Source: Bacillus sp. CGMCC 1.16541 (GTDB taxonomy: Bacteria > Bacillota > Bacilli > Bacillales > Bacillaceae_H). From it: a stretch of 40,000 nt of DNA. Positions 24,674 through 33,159 of the stretch are shown here, in pieces. The notes under the pieces were generated by a model, which was given only the letters and a program-made list of their open reading frames with translations, was not told the origin of the DNA and ran no database searches. The stretch is taken from the NCBI RefSeq assembly GCF_003184905.1, contig NZ_QFRU01000009.1:32150-72149 (forward strand), given 5' to 3'. The translations under genes and the position numbers were made by a program. Positions within the stretch are counted from its first letter, which is position 1. Each line of letters starts with the position of its first letter.

Positions 24674-25113
24674 AAAGGTTGTTGCCAGAAGTAGACTTCG
24701 ATAGTCTTCTGGAAGAAAGTAACTCCGAACCAGAATTCGGAAACAAAACACCTCTATTCGATTTCGAAAAGAGAGAGTTTGTGACGGATGAGCGTGGGCG
24801 GGTTGTGACAGATGACGGATTAAAAGGTATGGAAACCATCATTGCGAAAGCGCACCTAACGGCTAGGGACGTTTATGTCATGTACTCGGATTCTTATGGA
24901 AGCGAGGAAAAGGATGTACTTGCTGCTGATTATCCTGACAAAATTAGAAGGATGCTAGTTAAAGAGGCTATTAGAGATTGTTTAATATGGGATGATAGAG
25001 TGATAGAGGTCTCCCCTATTGAGCTTACTAATGTTAAAGATGGCTATATTGCTAGATATACTGTGGCGACAATTTTTGGAGATTTAGAGATTGAAAGAGA
25101 GGTGACACAATGA
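24667..25113 (+). CDS. baseplate protein (XkdS-like)
   Basis: ATG after gggtggtga; position. Confidence 0.5.
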   Translation: MVERLLPEVDFDSLLEESNSEPEFGNKTPLFDFEKREFVTDERGRVVTDDGLKGMETIIAKAHLTARDVYVMYSDSYGSEEKDVLAADYPDKIRRMLVKEAIRDCLIWDDRVIEVSPIELTNVKDGYIARYTVATIFGDLEIEREVTQ

Positions 25114-26228
25114 GTTATCCAGCATGGTTCAATGAGACGGTTGATGATTTAATTAATCAGATGTTAGATGATGTCGATCCAGCATACGATAAACGCGAAG
25201 GTGGCTTTGTTTATGATGTTCTTTGGCCCATTGCAAATCAAAGGTCATTATCGCGCGAGGAGTTAAAGAATGCTATTGACATGGCTTTTGTAGCTAATTC
25301 TGAGGGAGATCAACTAGACCAAGCAATTGCTGACCGTTCACCATTAAGAAGATATTTAGAAGAATACGCTTATGGTTATGTGACGGTTTATGGAAATCCT
25401 GGAACTCCTCTAAATCAAGGAACAAGGTTTATGAGCATTAATTATAGCGATTCCCCATCGATTGAATTTGAGTTAAGGTCAGACGTCACGATAGGTGATT
25501 CAGGAGAAATTGATGTGTTGGTGCATGCGCTTGAACCAGGTGAAATCGGAAATATACCTCCTGGGACTATCGAGATCGCTTCCCCTCTGGTTGGCGTTTC
25601 TGCTGTCACAAATAAAAATCATTTTGACGGCGGGAGAGATCGTGAATCTGACACTGACTTTAAAAATCGCTACTTCAAATGGAGGAGCGAAAAAGGTAGC
25701 TCAGGCAATCGTGCGGACTATGTTAGATGGGCTCTTGAAGTCACTGGCGTTGGCGGTGTAGCTGTATTCCCGACGTGGAATGGCCGCAACACAGTCAAGG
25801 TTGTTCTTGTCGATTCAGATTTTTCTCCAGCTGATGACATCATCATACAAGCTGCAAGGGATTATATTGACCCAACATACGGACAAGGAGATGGGAAAGC
25901 TCCTGTTGGGGCGATCGTCACTATTGAATCAGCAACGCCGATTCCTATAAGAATCTCCGTCAAAGCATCTGCTGACGATTTAAACAGTGTTAAAAGTCAA
26001 ATTAAAGAGTCTTTGAAAGGTTATTTAAAAGAAGTTAATAATAAGTATTGGGCTCAAACGAAAATTCCTACCGACTACAAAATTAGCTATTTAAAACTTG
26101 GGTCATTGATGGTTGATGCTGCTGGGGTTGATCAAGTAACAGACTTGCGCGTGAACAACAGCACGGATGACATTGTGATTCCTGCTGGCTCTGTAGCTCA
26201 ACTAGAGGAGGTTGTTTTCGATGAATGA
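25110..26228 (+). CDS. baseplate J-like protein (XkdT-like)
   Basis: 372 aa, with size and position typical of baseplate J. Confidence 0.65.
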   Translation: MSYPAWFNETVDDLINQMLDDVDPAYDKREGGFVYDVLWPIANQRSLSREELKNAIDMAFVANSEGDQLDQAIADRSPLRRYLEEYAYGYVTVYGNPGTPLNQGTRFMSINYSDSPSIEFELRSDVTIGDSGEIDVLVHALEPGEIGNIPPGTIEIASPLVGVSAVTNKNHFDGGRDRESDTDFKNRYFKWRSEKGSSGNRADYVRWALEVTGVGGVAVFPTWNGRNTVKVVLVDSDFSPADDIIIQAARDYIDPTYGQGDGKAPVGAIVTIESATPIPIRISVKASADDLNSVKSQIKESLKGYLKEVNNKYWAQTKIPTDYKISYLKLGSLMVDAAGVDQVTDLRVNNSTDDIVIPAGSVAQLEEVVFDE

Positions 26229-27066
26229 TGTAATTTCTTTGAGAGACACTCTCCTTTCGTATGCACCAGAGTATTACCAGGACTCAAAGTTATACAAAAG
26301 CCTGATGTATGCTTCAGCTAAACAGTTGGTGGGCTACGAGAATGAAAAAAACGATGTGCTTGAGCAGCTCCATCCAGAAACAGCTACCTGGGGACTTGAA
26401 CTATGGGAAAAGGACTTGCAACTATTTCCTTCGTTCGCTGATTCAATCGAAACGAGAAGAGCTCGTGTCATTTCTGAACTTTACAAAAACGAGGAAATGG
26501 TACGGCTAGAAATGCTAAATCGAATTGTAAATGTTTTTGTTCCTGCTAAAAATGCAAAGGTTCAATTAGTTGATGGTGGTGGCGCTTTTGAAGTTACATT
26601 ACCAATTGGCCCACTCCCCTTCTTGTTTCATGAAATGAAGGCTACTATTGATGAAATCAAACCAGCTCATGTCGAAGCTCTTTATGAAGGCGAGATTGAT
26701 GTAGGTGCTATGCGATTGACTGACGGTACTTATGCTTTCAGTGCGCAATATAAAGAGTGTGGGGAGTTTTCTGGAGAATCAAAGCTGCTAGACTACAAAG
26801 ATGAAAATTTAAATGCTGTTAGTCGCATCTATTCTTTCCCTGTTGAGTTTGAAACAAGTGAGGCAAATTTGGAAATGTTTGAGGATGAGAGTTTGATTGA
26901 GGATAAAACTTATCGTTTTCAAGCATTCTATCAATATTGCGGCGAGTTAGAAACAATGAATGCTAGTCTTTCTCTTACTGAAAGCTCTAGTATCACTAAA
27001 TGCATGGCTGTTGAAATTTCCGTGCCGTATCTTGAATGCGGTGAGTTTGAAGCTGAAGGAGAGTGA
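26221..27066 (+). CDS. tail protein (XkdU-like)
   Basis: ATG 9 nt after ggagg, following baseplate J. Confidence 0.55.
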   Translation: MNDVISLRDTLLSYAPEYYQDSKLYKSLMYASAKQLVGYENEKNDVLEQLHPETATWGLELWEKDLQLFPSFADSIETRRARVISELYKNEEMVRLEMLNRIVNVFVPAKNAKVQLVDGGGAFEVTLPIGPLPFLFHEMKATIDEIKPAHVEALYEGEIDVGAMRLTDGTYAFSAQYKECGEFSGESKLLDYKDENLNAVSRIYSFPVEFETSEANLEMFEDESLIEDKTYRFQAFYQYCGELETMNASLSLTESSSITKCMAVEISVPYLECGEFEAEGE

Positions 27067-27072
27067 TAAAAC

Positions 27073-27414
27073 ATGATAACTCCTGTATTTGTCGATTTAT
27101 TGAAACAAGATGCTGTAAGGTATTTTAAAAAAGCGATTGTCACAATCGACGGTGTTGACTATGAATATCCAATCGACACAACCATAGTTAAAGAAAATGA
27201 GTTTAAACATTATATATATGTCCAGGATGAGCCTGTTGGCGTAATAAATAAAGTAGTAATGCTGGACGAGTTAGACCGAGAATTAATGATTAAGGAGCCT
27301 AATTTTAACAAAGGCGACGATGGATGGTATATAGCATTTAAAGTAAAAATTAATATTGAGGAGGTCGAGGAACTTGGAGATCAAGGAACTGTTGGATCAG
27401 ATATTCAACTATGA
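27073..27414 (+). CDS. hypothetical tail-region protein
   Basis: 113-aa ORF. Confidence 0.45.
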   Translation: MITPVFVDLLKQDAVRYFKKAIVTIDGVDYEYPIDTTIVKENEFKHYIYVQDEPVGVINKVVMLDELDRELMIKEPNFNKGDDGWYIAFKVKINIEEVEELGDQGTVGSDIQL

Positions 27415-27733
27415 CCCTACCATTTGGCGTGATAGAGTTAGTGATCCAGAGGGCGACATCACGCATCCAGGTACAAAATTCACAGCAAGACGAGGCAATA
27501 AACTTGAGGATGCATCTAAGTTAGCTCACGACCGATTGAATAATGTTGTCATTTTTATCGATGAGCTGACAAGGCAACAAAAGAATTTACGCCTGGAATT
27601 CCTATTGCTAAAAGCCTCTGTCACATCAGGGCTTACAAGTAATATTTTTGTTGAAAACTTTGAGACAACTGACGATATTGTCTTAATAAATGGATTCCAC
27701 GACCCAGCAGATCAAAAATTATACATCAGATAA
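27374..27733 (+). CDS. hypothetical tail-region protein
   Basis: TTG start 9 nt after gaggagg; overlaps the upstream gene end. Confidence 0.4.
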   Translation: MEIKELLDQIFNYDPTIWRDRVSDPEGDITHPGTKFTARRGNKLEDASKLAHDRLNNVVIFIDELTRQQKNLRLEFLLLKASVTSGLTSNIFVENFETTDDIVLINGFHDPADQKLYIR

Positions 27734-27746
27734 GAAGGGAAATGTT

Positions 27747-28088
27747 TTGAACAAAGCAACAGATTTAATTATTTACAAGAAGGCTGAAACGCTGCTTAAT
27801 GAGGTTTATCCAATTTTACGAGCCTTTCCTAAATCAGAGAAATTTGCGATATGCCAAGAAATCAAACAAGCTTTTTATGCCCTGCTGCGAAATATTATGC
27901 TAGCGAATAACATCAAAGCAAGAAAACGAATATATCAAGAAGAAGCTGATGCTTATATAAAGCTCCTTGTTGTCTTGTTTTCTGTGGCTAAAAAGCAACG
28001 ATACATCACTCAGAAAAGGCATACAATGATTCAATTGAAAATTGAAGAATTAGGAAAGATACTCGGCGGCTGGATGAAATCATCATAA
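27747..28088 (+). CDS. avd: DGR accessory variability determinant (Avd, four-helix-bundle protein)
   Basis: About 113 aa, basic and helical, ending ...IEELGKILGGWMKSS like known Avd proteins. Lies immediately upstream of TR. TTG start after gaaggga (an ATG at 27690 is also possible). Confidence 0.75.
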   Translation: MNKATDLIIYKKAETLLNEVYPILRAFPKSEKFAICQEIKQAFYALLRNIMLANNIKARKRIYQEEADAYIKLLVVLFSVAKKQRYITQKRHTMIQLKIEELGKILGGWMKSS

Positions 28089-28110
28089 CCTATTAGGGTT
28101 GCAGCTGTTT

Positions 28111-28206
28111 GGCGCTAACCGTGCTCTTCGCGGGAACAATTCGGCGCGGAACTGGAACAACGATGATGCTTCGAACCGCAACCCGAACTACGGCTGGCGT
28201 CCCGCC
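28111..28206 (+). repeat. DGR template repeat (TR)
   Basis: 96 nt aligned without gaps to 29961-30056. Contains 21 adenines, including 8 AAC and 1 AAT codons in the VR reading frame. Confidence 0.9.
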
Positions 28207-28342
28207 TTGTTAGTAATATTTAGATCGATGCGTTTACGGATTCATCGACACGGCCTCTAACTTCAAGGGAGCTGCAATCCTTCGTTCGTAGAACGTAAAC
28301 ACATGAATAGTCATTCTCGCCCAGCTGAAAGGAGCGGCCGAA
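28207..28342 (+). other. DGR spacer (Sp-like) RNA region between TR and RT
   Basis: Non-coding with local hairpins (tcgatg/catcga at 28225-28248; cgttc gta gaacg at ~28283-28295). Also contains agctgcaatcc (28270-28280), which is complementary to gggttgcagct (28096-28106) upstream of TR. Confidence 0.55.
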
Positions 28343-29410
28343 ATGGCGAAAAAATATGATCATTTATACGAGAAGATTGTCGATTTTGACAATCTTCTTT
28401 TTGCATATAAACAAACACTAAAAGGAGATAGGAAATTCCGTAAGGATGCTATTCTATTTTCTATGCTGGAAGATGCTAACCTAGTAAGACTTTGGAAAGA
28501 ATTAAAAACTGGTAATTATAGAGTTGGTGAGTATATCAGATTCAAAGTTTACGAGCCGAAAGAACGCATGGTCAGCGCACCTAGGATCAAGGACAAGATT
28601 GTCCAATTCGCAACGCATACAGTCATAAAAGATGTTTACTCTAATGTGTTCGTATCTGACAGTTACGCTTGTCTTGAGGAAAGAGGAACTCATAAAGCGG
28701 TTGATAAAGTTCAGAAATATTTAAGAGATTGCGAGAGACTTTATGGTTACGGTTGGATTGTAAAAGTCGATGTGTCAAAGTTCTTTTATTCTATCGACCG
28801 AACGATTCTAAAAAGAATTCTTAGAAAAAAGATTGCGTGCCGTAAAACAATTTGGCTTCTTGATCAAATTATTGATAGCTCTCCAGAAGGAGAACGCGGA
28901 ATCCCTCTTGGGAACGTCACTAGCCAAGATTTTGCCAATATCTATTTAAATGAGTTGGATCAATATGTAAAACGTCATCTTGGCATCAAGTGGTATGTGC
29001 GATATATGGACGATTGCGTAGCTATCGTGCAGACAAAAGAAGAAGCGCAGAGATTAAAGAAGCAAATGTGTCGATTCCTTCGTGTTCATTTGAATCTGAT
29101 GGAAAATCCAAAGAAATCGCAAATATTCCCTCTTACTCAAGGGGTTAATGCTTATGGCTTTAAAATATGGACGACTCATAAGAAAGTCCGTGATCAGTCA
29201 AAAAGAGCGATGAAACGCCGCATCAAGGCGATGGATAGAAAGGTGAAAGGAGGCTCTTTAACCGTGAGTGAGGTCAAACAAGCTGTTGATAGCTGGATGG
29301 GCCACGCTCGACATAGCAACTCATATAATTTAGCTAAAAAAATCTTTGCTCCGTATCCATACATTAAAGTTGAAGGAGATGAGTATTTTGGCAAACGGAG
29401 ATTTAATTAA
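28343..29410 (+). CDS. DGR reverse transcriptase
   Basis: RBS gaaaggag. Contains IPLGNVTSQDFANIYLNELD (the SQ...N signature typical of DGR RTs) and the catalytic YVRYMDDCV. Confidence 0.9.
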   Translation: MAKKYDHLYEKIVDFDNLLFAYKQTLKGDRKFRKDAILFSMLEDANLVRLWKELKTGNYRVGEYIRFKVYEPKERMVSAPRIKDKIVQFATHTVIKDVYSNVFVSDSYACLEERGTHKAVDKVQKYLRDCERLYGYGWIVKVDVSKFFYSIDRTILKRILRKKIACRKTIWLLDQIIDSSPEGERGIPLGNVTSQDFANIYLNELDQYVKRHLGIKWYVRYMDDCVAIVQTKEEAQRLKKQMCRFLRVHLNLMENPKKSQIFPLTQGVNAYGFKIWTTHKKVRDQSKRAMKRRIKAMDRKVKGGSLTVSEVKQAVDSWMGHARHSNSYNLAKKIFAPYPYIKVEGDEYFGKRRFN

Positions 29411-31709
29411 ATTAGGTACGCTGTATGTTGGCGGTTCAAAAATTGCACGGCCAACTAAACCTTGGAGAAATGATTATACACCACCAGGAGCACCAAGTTA
29501 CGGAGATACTCCAAATTATACAGCTGGACAAACTATCGAAATTCGAAATACAGATGCTAGTGATGCTTATAAAATTCAATGGCGAGAGGTCAATATAGGT
29601 TCTAAGAAACTACTTGTAGCCGATCGCAACCTTTTGGTTAATATTTCATGGGACGACCTAAACGCTCAAAGTTTAGTGTTCGGCAAAACGATAACTATCG
29701 ATGGCCAACAATATAAGTTGCGATTACTAACTGCCGGGACGGGTCCAAGGAGTGGAAGTGATTGGTATTCTGGTGGAACCCCAACAAATAATGAGTGGGA
29801 CCAAATTATTGTTAATGAGGCTGGATATTCTGGCTTGCCAACCCCTTCATCATCAGATTTAGATACTAACCAAACATCAGTCGATTACAGCAGCGCCCAC
29901 AATCAATACTGGAATTGGTTTTATATCTATTCTTGGGGACAAGAGACATATTCAGGAAATGGCGCTTACCGTGCTCTTCGCGCGCTCGATTCGGCGCGGT
30001 CCTGGAACATCGATGCTGCTTCGTCCCGCATCCCGTACTTCGGCTGGCGTCCCGCCCTTGAAGTTCTGAATAGTGCCCCCGTGATTTCTGGCAATGACCA
30101 AAATTTAGGGAATAAAGCAGCCCCATTTTCAACGACTTATTCAGTTTCTGAACCTGATGGCGATAGCATTACTATTGTTGAGAAGTTAAATGGAAGTACG
30201 ATTCGCACAATAAACAATGCTGTTTCAGGTCAAACATATGAGATTGCACTTAGTATAGATCAGTGGGCTTCACTTCCACTCAATCAAGCGAGCACGATCA
30301 CGATTGAAGCAACTGATAACAAAGGATTAAAAACAACGCGGACTTATACTTTCACAAAAACGAATACAGCTCCGACAGCCGTGATCGTGGAGCCGAAAGG
30401 TGACTTAGCAAATATTGCAATAGTCAATACAATCACGCCAGTGCTGGTGTTTCAGTTCCAAGACAGTGATGCAGGCGATCAACAGTCAGCGTATGAAGTC
30501 GTTATTCAAGATACAAATGGAAATCAAGTGCATACGACTGGAAAAGTGGCTTCAACTCAATCTTTCTTCCAGGTCCCTTCAGGAAAGTTGACATGGGGAA
30601 CGAGGTACAAATGGAAAGTAAGATTGTGGGACAAGTTTGATGTGGCAAGTGCATATACACTTGAGCAATTCTTCATGCCGAATAGGCCGCCGAACGTAAC
30701 GGATGTTCAACCAGGAAGCAGCGATCCGAATTCTCCTACTGGGTCGAGTGTAACGCCTGAAATAACATGGGCATTCTCCGACTTGGACCTTGAAGCTCAA
30801 GCCGCTTATCAAGTCAGAGTATTTAAAAAAGCTGATGATTCAATTGCCTATGATTCAAATAAAATCAATAAAAATCTAACTAAGCACGAGATTCCAATCG
30901 GTGTTCTACAAGAGGGAACTGAATATTATGCCGTCGTAACTGTTTGGGATACAAATAATCTTTCTAAACAAAGTGAAAAGGCTTATTTTCGTACAAATGC
31001 AACGCCAGCTGCTCCGACAGCTACTTTTCCAATCAATACCTACCGCACTGGACTAAAGCCTACTTTTGGAGCAGTAATTGGCACTGATCCAGAAAATAAT
31101 GCGCAGCATTTTGTTATTGAAATTGCTGAAGATGTTAATTTCACACAAGGCGTTCTGAGCTTCTCTTCAGCAGAAAAACGTGAAGGTTGGCAAGTGAATG
31201 ATGGAAATAACACGTATTTCGATATTCCAATTGGTGGTGTCAACAATAGCTACCAAGGTCGTACCATTCGCTATAAATCTCAGGTCGATCTCCAAGAAGG
31301 CAAAGCCTATTATTGGAGAATGGCAGCGATTGATACGTCCACAGGCGCTCGTGGAAAATGGTCTGTACCTCGATCTATCCGTTGCGGGAATACTTTGTTG
31401 TTTACGCTCAAACGACCGATATCTACAGGTACTGTAGCAGCTCGTCGAATATTGATTGCGCTTGACTATCTCTTACCTACTGACGGAGCGATTCCAGCAG
31501 ACTTTACTATTGAAGTATCAAATAACGCGCTTGATATTGAACCTGTTTGGGAAGATGCGACTGAGCAATTCTTGGAAGCTGACTTTTATAACTTTACAAA
31601 CTCAATAAAGACAGCTGAGAATTTTGCGTTAAATATCCGCGTTACATTCCGTGCGAATGATTCTTTAATGCCAATTGAATTGCGCGGGCTCGGCTTTAGC
31701 TTCGACTAA
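29388..31709 (+). CDS. DGR target protein: tail-fibre-like protein with an N-terminal VR-bearing (probably C-type-lectin-fold) domain and FN3/Ig-like repeats
   Basis: TTG start 8 nt after aaggaga (an in-frame ATG at 29379 is also possible). VR codes NGAYRALRALDSARSWNIDAASSRIPYFGWRPALE. This is followed by three modules with the recurring pattern AYxVxV...GTxYxWxVxxWD. Confidence 0.8.
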   Translation: MANGDLIKLGTLYVGGSKIARPTKPWRNDYTPPGAPSYGDTPNYTAGQTIEIRNTDASDAYKIQWREVNIGSKKLLVADRNLLVNISWDDLNAQSLVFGKTITIDGQQYKLRLLTAGTGPRSGSDWYSGGTPTNNEWDQIIVNEAGYSGLPTPSSSDLDTNQTSVDYSSAHNQYWNWFYIYSWGQETYSGNGAYRALRALDSARSWNIDAASSRIPYFGWRPALEVLNSAPVISGNDQNLGNKAAPFSTTYSVSEPDGDSITIVEKLNGSTIRTINNAVSGQTYEIALSIDQWASLPLNQASTITIEATDNKGLKTTRTYTFTKTNTAPTAVIVEPKGDLANIAIVNTITPVLVFQFQDSDAGDQQSAYEVVIQDTNGNQVHTTGKVASTQSFFQVPSGKLTWGTRYKWKVRLWDKFDVASAYTLEQFFMPNRPPNVTDVQPGSSDPNSPTGSSVTPEITWAFSDLDLEAQAAYQVRVFKKADDSIAYDSNKINKNLTKHEIPIGVLQEGTEYYAVVTVWDTNNLSKQSEKAYFRTNATPAAPTATFPINTYRTGLKPTFGAVIGTDPENNAQHFVIEIAEDVNFTQGVLSFSSAEKREGWQVNDGNNTYFDIPIGGVNNSYQGRTIRYKSQVDLQEGKAYYWRMAAIDTSTGARGKWSVPRSIRCGNTLLFTLKRPISTGTVAARRILIALDYLLPTDGAIPADFTIEVSNNALDIEPVWEDATEQFLEADFYNFTNSIKTAENFALNIRVTFRANDSLMPIELRGLGFSFD
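29961..30056 (+). repeat. DGR variable repeat (VR)
   Basis: 82/96 identical to TR. 13 of the 14 differences are at TR adenines. The GC-rich 3' end ggctggcgtcccgcc is identical (IMH-like). Confidence 0.9.
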
Positions 31710-31726
31710 TAGATGAGGTGATCCAA

Positions 31727-31936
31727 ATGAAATCAATTACAAGCACTTCTCTTGAAGAACTTCGCCAAAAAGAGAAGGAAATTGAAATGAAAGAGCAGCA
31801 ATTGCAGGCGATCGGCATTGAGTTAGCGCAAGAAAAAATTAAAAACGCGCAAAAAGACTCAGTTATTCAAATGCTCGGGCGTGAGGTTGCTATGTTAAAA
31901 ATCGAAGTCATGACATTGAAAGAAGGTGAGGCATAA
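31727..31936 (+). CDS. small coiled-coil protein
   Basis: ATG 7 nt after gaggtga; 69 aa; heptad-like sequence. Confidence 0.5.
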   Translation: MKSITSTSLEELRQKEKEIEMKEQQLQAIGIELAQEKIKNAQKDSVIQMLGREVAMLKIEVMTLKEGEA

Positions 31937-32073
31937 TGGCATTCTGGAACTTGGCTTATAAAAGTAAATGGGTGACAGCCGACCAACTTCGTCTTGTTGT
32001 TAAAACAGATACGAATCCATTCGGAGAAATCACACAAGATGAATTCCAAACAATAACGGGTGAAGAATTTTAA
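31936..32073 (+). CDS. XkdX-family small phage protein (45 aa)
   Basis: MAFWNLAYKSKWVTADQLRLVVKTDTNPFGEITQDEFQTITGEEF resembles the XkdX pattern (W...IT.eey..ITG). TAATG overlap with the upstream gene. Translated by hand. Confidence 0.55.
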   Translation: MAFWNLAYKSKWVTADQLRLVVKTDTNPFGEITQDEFQTITGEEF

Positions 32074-32111
32074 ATCTAATTTAAACACTCTTAAAAGGAG
32101 TGTAAAAACAG

Positions 32112-32146
32112 AGCGAGAGGACAATATCCTCTCGCTTTTCATTTTC
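32112..32146 (+). terminator. Rho-independent terminator
   Basis: 9-bp stem agcgagagg / cctctcgct followed by tttcatttt. Confidence 0.65.
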
Positions 32147-32164
32147 ACGGAGGTGTTAGCTATT

Positions 32165-32401
32165 ATGAAAAAACCCGTCGCCGAAAAGAAAGATTACTTA
32201 ATTTTGATTGGAGGATTCTTAGCTTCATTGAAGATGCTTTTAGCATCTTTGGGCTATGATGTCATTCCTAACGAATCAATAGATGCAATCGTAAATTTAA
32301 TTGGTTTCGGAGTCGCTTTATATGCTGTTTGGAAAAACACTTACGTCAGCCCGAAAGGATTAGAACAGAAAAAAATCCTCAAAGACAACGGGTTGAAATA
32401 A
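32165..32401 (+). CDS. holin
   Basis: 78 aa with two hydrophobic segments and a charged C-terminus. RBS ggaggtg. Immediately upstream of the amidase. Confidence 0.7.
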   Translation: MKKPVAEKKDYLILIGGFLASLKMLLASLGYDVIPNESIDAIVNLIGFGVALYAVWKNTYVSPKGLEQKKILKDNGLK

Positions 32402-32421
32402 TTTAGGAAGGAGTGTTGATT

Positions 32422-33159
32422 TTGTCTGTAATAGTAAAAAAGAATCTGGTTCCGTCTTCTAAGTATAGTATTAAATGTCCTTTTTCAATGACGCCTCAAT
32501 ACATTACTATTCACAATACGGCAAACGATGCGAGCGCAGCAAACGAAATTGCTTATATGCTCCGCAACAATATGGAAATTTCCTATCATTTTGCTGTCGA
32601 TGACAAGGAGGTAATTCAGGGTGTTCCGACAGATAGAAACGCTTGGCATTGTGGAGATGGCAATGGTAACGGAAATAGAAAATCAATCGGTGTAGAGATA
32701 TGTTATTCAAAGTCAGGCGGCGAAAGATACGATAAAGCTGAAACGCTTGCGGTGAAATTCATAGCTAAATTATTAAAAGAACGTGGATGGGGAATAGATA
32801 GAGTGAAAAAACATCAGGATTGGTCGGGGAAATATTGTCCTCACCGCATTTTGTCAGAGGGTCGATGGGGTGCATTCCTGAAAGCAATCGAGAAAGAATT
32901 AAAAGACTCCAGCGGCTCAGTCGCTCAAGCTAAACCAAATCAACCTTCAAAAACCACAACAGGCAGCTTCAAAATTAAAGTAAAGGTTGCGGAATTGTGG
33001 TATTATAATAAACCAGATTGGAACGCAAAAAAAGCCACTGTTAAACGCGGAGAAGTGTTCACGGTTGTGGAGACGCTAACGGTGAATGGCTCTAAAATGT
33101 ATAAGCTAAAAAGTGGGACATACATCACTGCTAATCCTCAATATGTTGAGGTTTTATAA
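32422..33159 (+). CDS. endolysin: N-acetylmuramoyl-L-alanine amidase (PGRP/Amidase_2) with C-terminal binding domain
   Basis: Contains ITIHNTAN...SYHFAVDD...AWHCGDG...HQDWSGKYCPHRIL, then an SH3-like tail. Confidence 0.85.
   Translation: MSVIVKKNLVPSSKYSIKCPFSMTPQYITIHNTANDASAANEIAYMLRNNMEISYHFAVDDKEVIQGVPTDRNAWHCGDGNGNGNRKSIGVEICYSKSGGERYDKAETLAVKFIAKLLKERGWGIDRVKKHQDWSGKYCPHRILSEGRWGAFLKAIEKELKDSSGSVAQAKPNQPSKTTTGSFKIKVKVAELWYYNKPDWNAKKATVKRGEVFTVVETLTVNGSKMYKLKSGTYITANPQYVEVL

Follow-up and report, generated by a model that had tools for sequence, protein, structure and literature searches.

A probably complete Mushu-type diversity-generating retroelement in a Bacillus prophage, with a covarying spacer RNA and a candidate homing signal inside coding sequence

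Diversity-generating retroelements (DGRs) combine a template repeat (TR), a variable repeat (VR) in a target gene and a reverse transcriptase (RT); the accessory protein in most DGRs is Avd. Reference points for the element described here are the prototype DGR, that of Bordetella phage BPP-1, and that of Faecalibacterium phage FP_Mushu (Mushuvirus mushu), which is its closest characterised relative. Mu-like phages of Firmicutes reportedly carry DGRs as well. The Mushu DGR has been described with VR heterogeneity in virion DNA and reported as active (Cornuault 2018, PMC5883640), while a 2024 study found its VR signal to be less clear, without a distinct peak at VR. Cassettes with an avd-TR-RT core and a variable target position have been classified as architecture B1 (Wu 2018). 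We analysed 40,000 nt of Bacillus sp. CGMCC 1.16541 (contig NZ_QFRU01000009.1, positions 32,150-72,149; hereafter the window), in which positions 27747-31709 of the plus strand, where all features of the element lie, form a Mushu-type DGR cassette of this architecture. The window very probably contains a complete avd-TR-RT-target DGR within the tail/baseplate module of a myovirus-like prophage in a Bacillaceae-like host. Completeness had been claimed by a sequence-only reading, and the TR/VR pair, a DGR-type RT, Avd, a structured spacer RNA and a VR within an open reading frame (ORF) of AAC design have all been found. The DGR family has already been described in phage Mushu and in surveys, and this element is a further member; as a DGR it adds little, and such cassettes have been catalogued by the thousand. 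Its value lies in being a clean and compact case, in a Bacillaceae-like host that can probably be cultivated, where the entire BPP-1 RNA blueprint is legible from covariation.

The repeats carry the signature of adenine-directed transfer. TR (28110-28206) is non-coding and has 21 adenines; VR (29960-30056) encodes target residues 192-223. They align without gaps over 97 nt at 86% identity, with 14 mismatches, 13 of which fall on TR adenines; the sequence-only reading had these counts right and the length one base short, at 96 nt. It also had 13 of the 21 adenines changed to T, C or G, which here resolves into eight A>T, four A>C and one A>G. Realignment, which had been proposed as a check on the bias, preserves it (binomial P 2.6e-8 for at least 13 mismatches at A with 21 A in 97 nt; Fisher P 5.6e-10). 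In the VR frame, TR contains 8 AAC codons and 1 AAT codon, a count that agrees with the earlier one, and every TR adenine (21/21) occupies codon position 1 or 2, with third positions free of A. Mutagenesis is therefore unable to make a stop codon from AAC. The identical 3' run of the repeats is 16 nt long (28191-28206, CGGCTGGCGTCCCGCC; 81% GC), the length given previously, although the string then quoted had dropped its first c. Beyond 28206 and 30056 the flanks differ. This is consistent with the boundary of the initiation of mutagenic homing (IMH) type that had been proposed, and the VR flank is complementary over 11 of 11 positions to a spacer RNA strand discussed below. No second long repeat occurs in 27000-32500 besides TR/VR, and no further partner for the TR region emerged from a window-wide diagonal search.

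Both proteins of the mutagenic core are recognizable. The avd gene (27747-28088, 113 aa; it starts at a TTG that has GAAGGGA 7 nt upstream) had been described as Avd-like, which is borne out by matches to the NF033474 DivGenRetAVD equivalog (94 bits, where 80 is the cutoff) and to Pfam PF22296 bAvd (94 bits, E 7.9e-27); its product is 21% identical to BPP-1 Avd (E 3e-7). The RT gene (28343-29410, 355 aa; RVT_1, E 2.5e-22) encodes a protein that aligns end to end with BPP-1 bRT at 35% identity over 330 aa (E 2e-61). The DGR-type signature LGNVTSQDFANIYL and the catalytic YMDD reported earlier are both present; motif 4, LGNVTSQ, fits the DGR pattern (I/L/V)GxxxSQ and YMDD fits YxDD. At the positions of bRT D138, G182, Q187, D215/D216, F66 and R74 the protein has the same residues, I76 and I181 are replaced conservatively (by V and L), and it retains most of the fingertip and palm residues through which bRT touches template and dNTP in its cryo-EM structure. 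A promoter and terminator scan found no site above background within the cassette. The best NCBIfam match of the RT is a group II intron RT/maturase model, at 140 bits and far under its cutoff of 300. Such a match could be taken to mean that the repeats are an ordinary duplication or chance similarity and that the RT comes from an unrelated group II intron or retron, an explanation to which we give practically no credence. It is refuted by the adenine bias (P 2.6e-8), by the adjoining Avd, by the full-length similarity of the RT to bRT, by an RNA family assignment that includes no intron or retron RNA, and by recurrence of the arrangement in about 18 loci.

Those related loci, all from Bacillota, have TR/VR pairs with adenine-dominated mismatches; gene order is mostly as here, with the target upstream in three. 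The best RT match in GTDB genomes is from Anoxybacteroides voinovskiense (79% identity), with further matches in Rummeliibacillus, Brevibacillus, Maledivibacter, Clostridium and others; the best genomic relatives are in Anoxybacteroides, Rummeliibacillus and Brevibacillus. A megablast search with 27000-32000 gave no nucleotide match among deposited phages. Exact-protein look-ups with the RT, in a public assembly index, and with a flanking host gene retrieved nothing.

The spacer (Sp) RNA between TR and RT (28207-28342, 136 nt) is the most informative part of the locus. Positions 28223-28312 match Rfam RF03080 (RT-9) over its entire length (model positions 1-92 of 92) and score 76.9 bits, where the gathering threshold is 46.1 (E 3e-13); RT-9 was the sole match in the Rfam scan, in which no intron or retron RNA family appeared. 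Our own covariance model of the spacer RNA (R1) was found in 20 related loci. Covariation was assessed in an alignment of 17 loci that begins 25 nt upstream of TR and ends at the RT start, with the structure read from the sequences. Four helices emerge, with 97.3% of cells paired and changes on both sides in 23 of 33 pairs; none of 500 shuffles reaches the observed support, and slid partners are only 35-51% paired. All 31 helix pairs that have letters in the window are standard pairs.

Two of the four helices are long-range and bracket TR. The first (helix a, the Stop duplex) is a 12-bp pairing of AGGGUUGCAGCU (28095-28106), which ends 3 nt before TR, with AGCUGCAAUCCU (28270-28281). It is paired in 99.5% of cells and has both-side changes in 7 of 12 pairs, with 3-6 pair types at each of the central four. 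Its 5' strand is, by analogy, the counterpart of the avd:Sp 'cPRT Stop' duplex of BPP-1. The second (helix b) joins CCUUG at the TR boundary (28205-28209) to CAAGG (28264-28268), which is part of the Sp primer strand AACUUCAAGGG (28259-28269). In its five-pair core (alignment columns 127-131) pairing reaches 93%, and four of the pairs show double changes; comparison with BPP-1 TR117-129:Sp47-56 suggests a template:primer function for the TR-side strand. By the same analogy, the invariant G28204 is the predicted first templated base and G28268 or G28269 the predicted priming nucleotide. These predicted cDNA limits, with a start at G28204 and an end near 28107, agree with the extent of TR/VR identity. 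The other two helices are local. Hairpin 1 (helix c, 28225-28248) has 10 stem positions with one C-U mismatch and a UACG tetraloop (28235-28238); it is 99.3% paired with covariation in 8 of 9 counted pairs, has the position and form of the BPP-1 Sp3-33 stem with its UNCG loop, and is a putative Avd-binding stem-loop. Hairpin 3 (helix d, 28283-28295) covaries in 4 of 5 pairs and is followed, up to 28307, by a near-invariant A-rich single strand, UAAACACAUGAA.

Two pairings proposed by RNAalifold were rejected. A local AGGGA/UCCUU hairpin has no covariation, and its UCCUU side pairs instead with the covarying strand upstream of TR. A long-range pairing that joins the TR 3' end GGCUGGCG to the conserved GCCAAGCC close to the start of RT shows hardly any covariation and is broken in two loci that have GFRP (Phe for Trp of GWRP). 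The motif (U/C)GCCAAGCC itself (28320-28329; alignment A2 columns 245-252), upstream of the RT start, is kept in nearly all loci and may be the counterpart of a bRT-binding element.

These results link Rfam RT-9 to DGR function. Among RT-associated motifs, only RT-10 had been tied to a DGR, that of BPP-1, and other RT motifs were speculated to belong to other DGRs (Weinberg 2017, PMC5737381). Rfam lists RT-9 only as an RT-associated sRNA, whereas here it forms the DGR spacer core, exactly between TR and RT. The Rfam model is without the two long-range helices to the TR flanks that are present here, and it leaves AAUCCUU unpaired, whereas here AAUCCUU pairs upstream of TR.

The spacer RNA also points to the VR. 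The VR is internal to the target (aa 192-223 of 773, near the N-terminus), and its 3' flank is therefore coding (P-A-L-E-V-L-N-S-A-P). This flank lies in an IMH-like cis element within coding sequence (30051-30089; P-A-L-E-V-L-N-S-A-P-V-I-S). The Sp primer strand 28259-28269 can pair at 11 of 11 positions with 30055-30065, which lies just 3' of the transferred VR segment, whereas it makes only five contiguous pairs with the TR flank. For the duplex with the VR flank the predicted energy is -16.3 kcal/mol, and for that with the TR flank -8.3 kcal/mol; in BPP-1 the corresponding energies are -16.7 and -10.1 kcal/mol. Pairing with the VR flank is the better one in 16 of 17 loci, and spacer and VR flank, which are 1.8 kb apart, co-vary in several lineages (flank/spacer pairs GAAGTT-AACUUC, GAAATT-AAUUUC and GAACTT-AAGUUC). 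The IMH-like stretch is the sole peak of synonymous conservation in the first 270 target codons: conserved residues within it have a mean pairwise codon identity of 0.74, vs 0.37 for the other 94 conserved codons (Mann-Whitney P 1e-5).

How a DGR cDNA finds its target is poorly understood, and the clade may provide independent comparative evidence that it does so by pairing of the RT-9 primer segment with VR-flank DNA. We put this forward tentatively, with slightly less than an even chance of being correct. Two results count against the DGR cycle outlined below. In two loci (L015, L016) the primer strand pairs with the TR flank and pairs no better with the VR flank. In addition, 30030-30140 folded as DNA contains no stem-loop or cruciform 3' of VR (-9.4 kcal/mol, z = 0.11 against shuffles). 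A stem-loop 3' of VR boosts BPP-1 homing and is not universal among DGRs. The idea of primer-IMH pairing is not new, since the asymmetry of the primer strand towards the VR flank was proposed as the basis of IMH-directed homing in BPP-1 (Naorem 2017). If the pairing is functional, that model extends beyond BPP-1 and an orphan Rfam family, RT-9, gains a function. It would also mean that an IMH can sit inside coding sequence, contrary to the argument that VRs are C-terminal since their cis elements need freedom from coding constraint (Roux 2021); the present DGR family shows an alternative to a C-terminal VR, with a coding IMH. A homing signal within coding sequence makes the homing step testable by synonymous and compensatory mutations.

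A possible cycle can be outlined by analogy with BPP-1. The late operon would be transcribed through avd, TR and the 136-nt spacer, and the RNA would fold with TR looped out between two adjacent helices, the 12-bp duplex of the region upstream of TR with the spacer and the short duplex of the TR 3' boundary with spacer UUCAAGG. The UACG-capped hairpin just after TR would bind Avd, and the RT-Avd complex would prime cDNA from spacer G28268 or G28269, starting opposite TR G28204. TR would be copied with random misincorporation opposite adenines until synthesis stopped at the upstream duplex near 28107. The RNA-linked cDNA may then find VR through the primer strand, which is fully complementary to 30055-30065 and partially so to the TR flank, and this difference in complementarity could set the TR-to-VR direction. 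With the cDNA in place of VR, as many as 12 codons (residues 194-218) of the target's N-terminal domain would be recoded.

Whether such a cycle still runs is a separate matter. The TR/VR differences record at least one mutagenic homing event, so the claim in the sequence-only reading that the element has been active holds for the past and for the past only; present-day activity may be supposed by analogy with BPP-1. The locus could instead be a fossil, with recognizable parts that no longer diversify, a frozen VR and a cassette drifting towards loss. The observations that favour this, and so count against a working element, begin with the only non-adenine mismatch, TR G28133 vs VR C29983 (G>C). 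It lies in VR codon 8 (29982-29984) and turns Gly into Ala at target residue 199, where Gly is found in >90% of homologues and in TR; the mismatch suggests either an RT error at a non-A position or drift after the last homing event. DGR decay also occurs in this lineage: the locus with the closest target homologue (P0001, 80% identity), L083 from Logan contig SRR23005534, has lost TR, the spacer and most of RT to an internal deletion. What is left there is a 153-aa 'bAvd' ORF (L083:5559-6023), a fusion of Avd(1-70) to RT(266-355) that is 86% and 92% identical to the respective window proteins, and the locus is a dead DGR with a frozen VR. Brevibacillus sp. B_LB10_24 (L005:1-2088) has a TR that is nearly adenine-free and differs from VR at one position; its VR occurs twice, 169 nt apart and next to scaffold N, and the reading frame is broken, so that either TR has been overwritten by VR-like sequence or the assembly is at fault. 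Three contigs of Maledivibacter halophilus M1 (L007, L008, L019) carry prophage copies that are 100% identical over 8 kb, VR included, which suggests either that the region multiplied recently and the DGR did not diversify the copies, or that a transposable phage was captured during replication. The published Mushu data are likewise mixed, with VR variation in one study and a less clear signal in another. Against decay of the window copy, Avd, RT and target are all full-length ORFs, and the check for inactivating changes in the RT that had been suggested finds its catalytic residues intact. TR keeps its 21 adenines and AAC design, all 31 helix pairs are standard, and the primer strand still matches the VR flank at 11 of 11 positions. 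We therefore consider a fossil improbable and retain the complete DGR as the preferred reading.

The target gene (29388-31709, 773 aa) has a TTG start 9 nt after AAGGAG and a 23-nt overlap with the RT gene; TTG 29388 is the start that gene callers also choose for homologues. The protein consists of a VR domain (aa 1-228), an Ig-like domain, about three Rha78A-type Ig domains (two stretches matched by Pfam and a third recognized from sequence repeats) and a C-terminal beta-sandwich. The compact VR domain has G-W-R-P at its end, its last strands are encoded by VR, and the VR-encoded segment ends in FGWRPALE, as had been noticed before. An AF2 model of residues 1-244 (29388-30120) has a pLDDT of 93.4. 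Foldseek comparison of the VR domain with PDB gives matches of which ranks 1-33 are all FGE/CLec-type, among them PvdO, EgtB, FGE, PorK and the DGR target TvpA (2Y3C), and these suggest an FGE/C-type-lectin-like domain. The C-type-lectin fold proposed earlier is a tentative assignment: the matches are weak (E at least 0.013, TM ~0.3), which counts against it, and sequence profiles return nothing: Pfam and NCBIfam place no family on the VR domain, and Pfam places none in 54 homologues either. BLASTP found no similarity between the VR domain and Mtd. Comparison with viral models (BFVD) ranks paralogous jumbo-phage virion structural proteins first (E down to 5e-10), with a DUF6273 protein and an FGE-like phage protein scoring lower; this suggests a receptor-binding fold common to the VR domain and non-DGR phages. 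The jumbo-phage neighbours are PhiPA3, Noxifer, EL, RisingSun and PhiEaH1.

Many target homologues are ~225 aa long, ending just past VR, or ~425 aa, so the C-terminal extension is modular. The conserved C-terminal beta-sandwich (~105 aa, pLDDT 85.8) retrieves only generic beta-sandwiches in a fold search, which does not distinguish tail from capsid and to that extent weakens a tail assignment. The T4 Hoc protein has a variable N-terminal domain, Ig domains and a conserved C-terminal domain, a layout that the target resembles. Residues 226-334 match PHROG 10993 'Hoc-like head decoration', and the Ig-like repeats of the Mushu homologue have led to its annotation and discussion as Hoc-like, which also speaks against a tail protein. 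The DGR could accordingly be real and its target a Hoc-like capsid decoration that tunes adhesion to environmental surfaces and not a host-range tail fibre. We judge this unlikely, though less so than a fossil element. The label rests on one Ig-like domain, while residues 347-551 match PHROG 5287 'minor tail protein', and the sole match in a PDB sequence profile search of the target is the Ig-like domain of a 'Tail fiber protein'. Such targets have been re-read as tail fibres with Ig domains beside an uncharacterised VR domain (Roux 2021). In the window, baseplate J (25110-26228) and Mu gp48-like (26212-27066) precede two small ORFs, after which come the DGR, a holin-like ORF and an amidase (32413-33159). 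The DGR thus lies between baseplate genes and the lysis cassette, in the tail-fibre region as had been stated, and the tail module of the window has no other fibre-sized gene. In the Clostridium siphovirus phi8074-B1, the same N-terminal domain heads gp17, which directly follows the tape measure, Dit and Tal. A tail location is favoured, although unproven, because of this genomic position, the PHROG minor-tail match and the phi8074-B1 arrangement. The target is most likely a virion surface protein that is tail-borne and receptor-binding, and the 'Hoc-like head decoration' label is thereby corrected towards a tail-associated, receptor-binding role.

The phi8074-B1 gp17 protein (L086:12457-15135, 892 aa) belongs to a tail-tip module and its VR-domain homologue is 42% identical to that of the window; no RT or Avd occurs anywhere in the phi8074-B1 genome. 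About 30 C. sporogenes phages share the VR-type domain, and an RT search suggests that they have no RT either.

The window is a prophage in a Bacillaceae-like host genome of ~40% GC, with structural genes for an SPP1-type portal, a Mu F-like protein, capsid, sheath and tape measure. A phage-borne N6 DNA methylase is encoded at 2251-2949. The 125-aa ORF before avd (27356-27733) has a PHROG 'kinase' match, as does its Mushu counterpart; the label looks unreliable, and the ORF reads as a short coiled-coil fibre or adaptor. Downstream of the DGR, the first strong terminator-like hairpin (32110-32138, 12 bp with a T-run) lies inside a 113-aa ORF (32060-32401) whose residues 32-111 match a holin family. 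The holin gene itself probably starts beyond this hairpin, in which case the hairpin would mark the end of the tail/DGR operon. On the right, the prophage ends at ~34.8-34.9 kb (34826 on), and host genes follow up to 40000, including a minus-strand ABC transporter pair, a sodium:dicarboxylate symporter and a DHH-family protein.

Compared with known systems, the locus is closest to Mushu. Both have baseplate J, Mu gp48-like, two small ORFs, avd, TR, RT and target in this order, the same spacer RNA family with the same four helices, and an internal VR followed by Ig-like domains. The Mushu RT is 45% identical and the Mushu target N-terminal domain 50% identical; its TR/VR pair is of similar length, with 11 of 11 mismatches at adenines. 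The two differ in host (Bacillaceae-like here, Faecalibacterium for Mushu), in target length (773 aa here vs 574 aa, with extra Rha78A-type Ig domains here) and in an ~80-nt insertion in the Mushu spacer that is absent here. An internal VR and the lack of a hairpin after VR are departures from the textbook DGR that are common to the Mushu family. Relative to BPP-1 (mtd-avd-TR-brt), the target is downstream of RT instead of upstream of avd, VR sits close to the N-terminus of a long protein and not at the C-terminus, the stem-loop 3' of VR that BPP-1 has is absent, the VR domain and Mtd show no similarity detectable by sequence, and the Stop-duplex 5' strand is in the avd-TR intergenic gap, whereas in BPP-1 it is inside avd. 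What the two share is Avd, a DGR RT, adenine-specific TR-to-VR transfer, the AAC design and a primer strand whose complementarity to the VR flank exceeds that to the TR flank. The likeness extends to the RNA in the BPP-1 cryo-EM structure, where the same elements follow in the same order and spacing: a UNCG Avd-binding stem at the start of Sp, a template:primer duplex between TR and Sp and, 1-2 nt on, the upstream:Sp stop duplex, followed by a short stem-loop and adenosines.

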